IMG/VR virus record: IMGVR_UViG_2675903368_000004
Length of the DNA: 12,577 nucleotides
DNA from: a virus
Lineage: Duplodnaviria; Heunggongvirae; Uroviricota; Caudoviricetes
Reading direction: 5' to 3' (one strand)
Under the pieces are notes generated by a model. That model was not told where the DNA came from, searched no databases, and saw only the letters and a program-made list of their open reading frames with translations. The position numbers and the translations under genes are program-made. Positions 6,601 through 6,850 of this stretch are shown in pieces (within the stretch, counting starts at the first letter, position 1; every line of letters begins with the position of its first letter).

Positions 6601-6635
6601 CCGGTAGCAAAAGCCCCGGCAAATGCCCCCGCCAT
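3618..6635 (-). CDS. Tail length tape measure protein, main reading frame (1005 codons from the first in-frame ATG)
   Basis: Long ORF between the G/GT chaperone and M; N-terminal conserved tape-measure-like region, central K/E/Q-rich coiled-coil, hydrophobic segment LLSGALGLVGGVPGLVMLGATAW, C-terminal ...RRDGGLYSA resembling the lambda gpH C-terminus. This frame is open upstream to 6698 but has no start codon or SD there (see findings). Confidence 0.85.
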   Translation of the reverse strand: MAGAFAGAFATGHLISLADEWNSVNARLKQASQSSDDFQVSQRELMAISQRTGTAFSDNASLFARSAASMREYGYSSEEVLKVTEAISTGLKLSGASTAEASSVITQFSQALAQGVLRGEEFNSVNESGDRVIRALAAGMGVARKDLKAMADNGKLTADKVVPALISQLGALRDEYAAMPDTVSSSATKVENAFMAWVGGANEASGVTKTLSGVLNGLAGNIDTVATAAGALVAVGVARYFGNMASSAGSATAGLITAARNEVALAEAQLRGTQIATARARAAVYRAQQAVVAARGTERQAAAEAKLTAAQASLTRNIAARTAAQTTLNTVTSVGSRLLSGALGLVGGVPGLVMLGATAWYTMYQNQEQARESARQYAATIDEIRQKTSAMSLPEASDNEEKTRQALDEQNRLIDEQKSKIKSLQEKIAGYQYVLANPGWTTDNGFMINHMTSVKTVTEGLAEATNQLAVEQSRLTQMQGKAQSIQDVLAGLEERRVALIRQQAAEQNKAYQSLLIMNGQHTEFNRLLGLGNELLQQRQGLVNVPLRLPQATLDDKQQTALNNSERELALSRLKGEARERARLGYAADDLGFVGEAYQTARQNYINNSLDAWRNNQANKPKAHKKTEAEKTEDIYKRLIKQQKEQIALAGQNTELAKMKYQVSQGELSTLSEAQKKTLLQNAALIDQKKIREQLAAYESSLADSNASARASDDAQLLGYGEGSRMRERLQEMWSIRHEFEQKNNELLRQYQAGEIEEALWKQEKELNKKYLEERLSDQQDYYAKADALRNNWNAGLQEGLTNWADSATDYASQAADAVVSTMDGLVSNISDALAGNVVDWRNWGSSVLREVSKILMNAAIVNGLKSLSGAGGWLGTVGGWISGAVANAKGGVYTSANLSAYSNTIVDTPTYFAFAKGAGLMGEAGPEAIMPLTRAADGSLGVRAIGNVNSGGGVVYSPVYHISIQNQGSNGEIDARSARGLVDLIDSRVVSIMQSSRRDGGLYSA

Positions 6636-6637
6636 AT

Positions 6638-6850
6638 TCAGTGCCGAAGATTTACTGTATTTATCTGATCCGTCACTTCTGCCAGTGCACGCCGCATTTC
6701 ACGGGATGCAGCAGCGGACTGCCGGCCTCCGTTCTGCATGGTACGGTAGTAATCCTGCCCCATACGCGAAGCCCGGGAGATCTCTGACTGGAATGACCGG
6801 GAATTTGCCGAGATTTTAATAATCAGTTCACGTAATGTCGCCACACTCAT
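6638..6850 (-). CDS. Probable true 5' end of the tape measure gene, in a different frame from the main body (70 codons)
   Basis: ATG at 6850 (GTG 6844 alternative) with GGAG immediately upstream, starting 40 nt after the GT stop where a tape measure start is expected; ends at TGA 6640-6638 and overlaps the open part of the main frame over 6641-6698. Confidence 0.5.
   Translation of the reverse strand: MSVATLRELIIKISANSRSFQSEISRASRMGQDYYRTMQNGGRQSAAASREMRRALAEVTDQINTVNLRH

Follow-up and report, generated by a model that had tools for sequence, protein, structure and literature searches.

A predicted tape measure pseudogene produced by a one-base deletion in a probably defective prophage of Escherichia coli

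The gene for the tape measure protein (TMP) was found to be broken across two reading frames in the window, as the whole stretch of 12,577 nucleotides analysed here is called. According to alignments with intact relatives, exactly one base has been lost from this gene. The preferred reading, to which a probability of roughly 0.85 is assigned, is that a real, heritable one-base deletion introduces a premature stop, that the remaining 1005 codons would be untranslated or poorly translated and that no functional tape measure protein would be produced. Judged from sequence, the locus belongs to the lambda gpH/HK97-type tape measure family as a pseudogene and not as a functional member, and its carrier is a probably defective prophage of E. 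coli with a lambdoid tail and an HK97 head.

The two reading frames and the missing base

The minus strand holds every gene of the window. The features of the tape measure locus are listed below, with the source of each assignment in brackets.

3618..6850, minus strand: whole tape measure protein gene, lambda gpH/HK97-type, now a predicted frameshift pseudogene (alignment, Pfam)
6638..6850, minus strand: N-terminal fragment ORF of 70 codons with an ATG start and the stop TGA 6640-6638 (ORF list)
3618..6635, minus strand: the remaining 1005 codons, starting at ATG 6635 (ORF list)
6641..6698, minus strand: overlap in which both frames are open (frame scan)
6654..6655, minus strand: site of the 1-nt deletion, where the C of codon 66 (GCT, Ala) is gone between G 6655 and T 6654 (alignments)

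An earlier reading of this DNA, made from the sequence alone (the sequence-only reading), had placed a start at ATG 6850, a stop at TGA 6640-6638, a second frame open to 6698, an overlap at 6641-6698 and an internal start at ATG 6635, and all of these coordinates were reproduced in the ORF list and in the sequence. The start that it had called well placed is indeed preceded by GGAG, which stands 7 nt upstream of ATG 6850 (TCCGGAGAATGAG); the upstream GT stop is TGA 6893-6891. From ATG 6850, the 70-codon ORF comprises 65 native codons and 5 out-of-frame codons (VNLRH), after which TGA 6640-6638 is reached. With the N-terminal fragment taken as frame 0, the 1005-codon ORF lies in the -1 frame. 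Because this frame is open upstream to 6698 (its own stop is at 6701-6699) and the 70-codon frame continues to TGA 6640-6638, the two frames overlap over 6641-6698. TGA 6640-6638 and ATG 6635 are separated by 2 nt (TGAATATG). The lack of a Shine-Dalgarno sequence for ATG 6635, also reported by the sequence-only reading, was confirmed: no GGAG, AGGA or GAGG occurs in the 25 nt before this codon (ATACAGTAAATCTTCGGCACTGAAT).

Comparison with intact homologues demonstrated that the two ORFs are residues 1-65 and 73-1077 of one protein. ATG 6635 corresponds to the native internal Met73, and the 1005-codon ORF to native residues 73-1077; residues 66-72 (AKSSALN) are the only ones lost in the split. 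The sequence-only reading had proposed that a single-base indel broke one tape measure gene, and alignment to intact tape measure proteins, the check that it had suggested, bore this out and pinpointed the indel in codon 66: one C is missing between 6655 and 6654, and the relatives have a single ORF of 1075 or 1077 aa. In codon 66 (GCT, Ala), the missing C is that of the second position; the window has ACAG^TAAATC (minus strand; the caret marks the site), whereas the relatives have ACAGCTAAATC.

With regard to the sequence context, the same reading was right that the overlap contains no slippery heptamer: no X_XXY_YYZ motif was found in the 0 frame of the 70-codon ORF or in 6641-6698. Its mention of several short homopolymer runs did not hold, since the only homopolymers in the overlap are two 3-nt A runs, with no run longer than 3 nt. 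The missing base lies outside any homopolymer, including both AAA runs, and the site is not a simple repeat.

Gene callers start the N-terminal fragment at GTG 6844, which yields a product of 68 aa, deposited as CTU36965.1 and others; for the 1005-aa product, CTU36956.1 is one of several deposited entries. An exact protein match existed for the 68-aa form from GTG 6844 but not for the 70-aa product from ATG 6850.

The assignment to the tape measure family was supported by both domains and gene position. In the intact orthologue of strain EC32, the Pfam families TMP_3 (aa 85-274, E = 8.4e-57), Phage_HK97_TLTM (aa 397-688, E = 5.5e-94) and Tape_meas_lam_C (aa 863-934, E = 1.8e-13) were found, and the precomputed annotation of the 1005-aa product of the window contains all three as well. 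The first 70 residues of the intact protein matched no Pfam family. The gene order was major tail, G, G-T, TMP, M, L, K, I, J, which places the tape measure gene where it is expected: Phage_TAC_1 and Phage_tail_T are encoded upstream of it, and Phage_min_tail, Phage_tail_L, NLPC_P60/JAB, Lambda_tail_I and GpJ downstream. Thus, the family is recognizable by Pfam domains and by gene position, but in place of one continuous long ORF there are ORFs of 70 and 1005 codons. The functional counterpart of the gene is of the lambda gpH type.

Two observations concern gene calls in the same tail module. A 103-nt stretch (1837-1939, minus strand) is shared, in different frames, by the gene for the K-like C40/JAB peptidase (1837-2580) and the I-like tail assembly gene (1292-1939); this overlap is annotated likewise in intact relatives and is probably a matter of family gene layout or start-codon choice. 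In a sister contig (L003 12419-13951, minus strand), a 510-aa gene without a Pfam match has been called antisense inside J, and this is probably a spurious gene call.

The intact allele in relatives and the deletion in a small clone

The closest relatives of the window belong to the same prophage/phage family and have intact tape measure proteins. These include EC32 (WP_137444649.1) and E. coli 4/4 (WP_032180049.1, 1075 aa), as well as the Escherichia phages vB_EcoS-689R5, Evi and phi467, also with intact tape measure proteins, the DNA of which is 96.7-99.2% identical to that of the window over 4 kb. The Pfam domains and the gene order are the same in the intact family members and in the window; the window differs in being without the C in codon 66. 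In E. coli 4/4, the DNA around the gene start is 100% identical over 342 aligned columns, except for the missing C. EC32, the closest genome, was compared with the window base by base over 12,462 bases (12.46 kb), and only one gap and one mismatch (at 5146) were found. Since the mismatch, which is the only other difference, is private to EC32, the deletion is recent on this comparison and, as far as the sequenced isolates go, confined to a small clone.

The distribution of the intact allele was established by searches of complete genomes, and the deletion allele was found in none of 5,426. A 951-nt query across the region matched 904 complete E. coli genomes, the best matches being 99.9% identical and spanning 952 subject bases. 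An 81-nt query centred on the site was found at 935 places in 873 complete genomes, never at 100% identity; the identity was in the 95-99% band for 872 of the 873 records, and the matches listed have 98.8%, the value that the single gap produces. By this search, each of the 873 complete E. coli genomes with this stretch has the base and lacks the deletion allele. Viral sequences were checked by scanning IMG/VR with a flanking pattern taken from the window, consisting of the 37 nt just downstream of the site. All viral contigs matched by the pattern (86/86) read ...AGC before TAAATC, i.e., the C is present. Exact scans for the deletion allele gave no match in metagenome, viral and GTDB-representative contigs.

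In intact relatives, the gene is a single ORF of 1075-1081 codons. It is annotated as "phage tail tape measure protein" with a length of 1075 aa, the PGAP start being a GTG two codons after the ATG, from which the length is 1077 aa. One continuous ORF also runs through the site in phage Evi (1081 aa) and in a Stx1a-converting phage (1080 aa); in the latter, both halves are conserved, and the protein is 72% identical over the first 70 residues. Hence both halves are, in these alignments, collinear with a single intact ORF in close and in more distant homologues, which is how a frameshift pseudogene is recognized.

The sequence-only reading had mentioned, as less likely, a separate conserved 70-aa gene followed by a tape measure protein that starts at ATG 6635. 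This arrangement was found in no homologue among the 873 complete genomes, the 86 viral contigs, Evi and the Stx1a phage, and the proposal was rejected because all homologues are single-frame, even at 72% identity (first 70 residues).

It had to be considered whether the break is a sequencing or assembly artefact confined to deposited short-read assemblies, the actual genome having the base. The reverse complement of the window is an entire NCBI contig, CYCR01000049.1 (GCA_001284745.1), a short-read contig bounded by repeats. As would be expected of an artefact, every occurrence of the allele is in a draft assembly from a single accession series or in a Logan assembly of the corresponding kind of read set, and 0 of the 5,426 complete genomes contain it. 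However, the same deletion is present in CYEA01000049.1 (GCA_001283905.2), which is distinguished from the window by two SNPs (2275 and 2278), and in the Logan assembly of run ERR178201, for which raw reads were assembled independently with different software and which is identical to the window over 9.3 kb. Exact copies of the 1005-aa and 68-aa products were each found on 7 contigs (7-8 for the 1005-aa product), with four NCBI protein accessions listed for each. The deposited assemblies apparently form one submitter series (CT*/CY* accessions) with a possibly shared pipeline, so that their independence consists in the two SNPs and the separate Logan assembly. Single-base deletions in the consensus are rare in short-read data of the Illumina type, and this also speaks against an artefact if these runs are Illumina, as does a site that is neither a homopolymer nor a simple repeat. 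A real mutation is favoured by the recurrence of the same deletion, at a non-repetitive site, in two or more assemblies that differ by SNPs and in the separately built Logan assembly. An artefact is therefore considered improbable, and the deletion is very likely a heritable mutation of a small clone and not an assembly error, as far as can be judged from the assemblies.

IS100 in the portal gene

The sequence-only reading had suspected a decaying prophage, and an insertion sequence in the portal gene, at the end of the contig, agrees with this. The two features concerned are as follows.

12463..12577, minus strand: right end of IS100/IS100kyp (IS21 family, istB side), which ends ...CCGTCGTTGACA and adjoins the portal gene (matches IS100 copies in thousands of records)
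11696..12462, minus strand: portal gene without its first ~460 nt (~153 codons), up to the IS100 junction (EC32 homology)

Homology to EC32 starts 460 nt inside the portal CDS (EC32 locus L002 2541-3767, match from 3001). The IS end is identical to the IS100 copies in two other loci (L008 and L009) up to ...GTTGACA, beyond which the flanks differ, as is characteristic of the end of an IS. Some IS100 matches run 14-15 nt past the junction; they were attributed to chance similarity of the flanks in other genomes (TTTCCAGTAAGT vs TTTGCGGTAAGT). The same IS100/portal junction is present in CYEA01000049.1 and in the Logan assembly of ERR178201, both of which break there.

The contig contains 115 nt of IS100 and one junction only, the other side lying on another contig of the draft assembly, and complete loss of portal function would be expected from the one side of IS100 that is visible. 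Interruption of a portal gene by an IS is expected to block head assembly, according to established phage biology. Therefore, the prophage was probably defective, and unable to form virions, regardless of the tape measure break. With the portal gene interrupted, the prophage would pay no selective cost for losing the tape measure protein. Decay appears to have only just begun, because the other genes of the window have the same lengths as in intact relatives and the DNA is otherwise the population consensus.

A complete IS100 was also observed in E. coli O9:H10 Res13-Lact-PEB20-37-A (L008 750-2620), in the same prophage family but at a different site, namely between a small ORF that follows the terminase gene and an intact portal gene. 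Since the site differs, IS100 must have struck this head module at least two times independently. Both ends of the window are repeats: IS100 on one side and, on the other, the J host-specificity gene, which is common to lambdoid prophages.

Predicted consequences, alternatives and known systems

According to the preferred reading, ribosomes that start at ATG 6850 or GTG 6844 would translate 65 native codons and 5 wrong ones before terminating at TGA 6640-6638. Little or no translation would be expected of the other 1005 codons, which lie in the -1 frame and begin at an internal Met without a ribosome binding site, so that the full-length, length-determining tail protein would not be made. It is the premature stop together with the 1005 codons in the -1 frame without a ribosome binding site that makes the gene a predicted pseudogene. 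IS100 in the portal gene would probably block the formation of virions in any case, and loss of the tape measure protein would cost nothing.

Close spacing of a stop and a start allows translational coupling by termination and reinitiation. A split but working gene would accordingly be one in which ribosomes stop at TGA 6640-6638 and reinitiate at ATG 6635, the 70-aa and 1005-aa pieces, or the large piece alone, supporting tail assembly. The distance of 2 nt between the two codons is a geometry compatible with such coupling; moreover, the split costs only residues 66-72, all Pfam domains (from residue 85 on) are in the large piece, and all other tail genes in the window are intact. Nevertheless, no homologue among hundreds of genomes and phages is arranged in this way, so this is not a selected architecture, and ATG 6635 lacks a Shine-Dalgarno sequence. 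Conservation of the N-terminal 72 residues (72% identity over positions 1-70 in the Stx1a-converting phage) argues that they matter. Finally, IS100 interrupts the portal gene, so that selection to keep the tail working is not obvious. This split-gene reading was given even less weight than an artefact, and a shade less again was given to the idea that coupled reinitiation yields the 1005-aa protein, with or without the 70-aa piece, and that the otherwise pristine tail module still builds tails, e.g., for use by another lambdoid prophage in the same cell.

The genes immediately upstream of the tape measure gene are relevant to recoding. Both are intact.

7193..7579, minus strand: tail assembly chaperone G (Phage_TAC_1, E = 2.7e-58) (Pfam)
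6891..7202, minus strand: T frame (Phage_tail_T; T itself at 6891-7181), entered through a -1 shift at the heptamer A_AAA_AAG (Pfam, heptamer)

The heptamer A_AAA_AAG is located at 7202-7196 (minus strand), just before the G stop TAG 7195-7193, and a -1 shift at this site produces a 229-aa G-T fusion with Phage_tail_T. This is the canonical arrangement of the tail chaperones; Xu et al. are said to have described the programmed -1 frameshift of the tail assembly chaperones G/G-T in 2004. The G/G-T frameshift adjoins the tape measure gene upstream in the same operon and, like the break, involves two overlapping frames that a -1 shift joins. The G/G-T site, however, is a conserved A_AAA_AAG present in all relatives, whereas the break in the tape measure gene lacks a slippery site and occurs in no relative.

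Programmed recoding, in which a -1 ribosomal frameshift or transcriptional slippage in 6641-6698 restores the full-length protein, was rejected as practically negligible: any -1 shift within the 58-nt overlap would suffice to connect the frames, and the neighbouring G/G-T genes use such a shift, but the overlap has neither an X_XXY_YYZ heptamer nor a run longer than 3 nt, and the two-frame arrangement is not conserved, all relatives being in frame and therefore without a conserved recoding signal.

Within the late operon, the 40 nt that separate the stop of T from the start of the tape measure gene contain a perfect intrinsic-terminator-like hairpin at 6861-6882 (minus strand; AACCGC-TTCG-GCGGTT followed by T8), which is identical in E. 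coli 4/4. By attenuation, this hairpin may keep expression of the tape measure gene below that of the chaperones, or antitermination may be required for readthrough.

The loss of the base as the preferred reading describes it is of little importance outside annotation. In the deposited records, each fragment is a "phage-related minor tail protein" gene of its own; a single entry for a frameshifted tape measure pseudogene would be more appropriate. The break and the IS100-interrupted portal gene jointly mark this copy of the prophage as defective in a small E. coli clone, for which the deletion might be used as a clone-specific marker.

In cryptic prophages, both IS insertions and structural genes with frameshifts are commonplace, and the tape measure gene of the window is an ordinary frameshift pseudogene, an instance of an already known phenomenon with no new biology or mechanism. 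Frameshift pseudogenes of defective (cryptic) enterobacterial prophages likewise combine a point indel in a structural gene with an IS in an essential morphogenesis gene. Compared with these, nothing notable differs in the window; the rest of the 12.5-kb module matches intact relatives, and its decay is at a very early stage.
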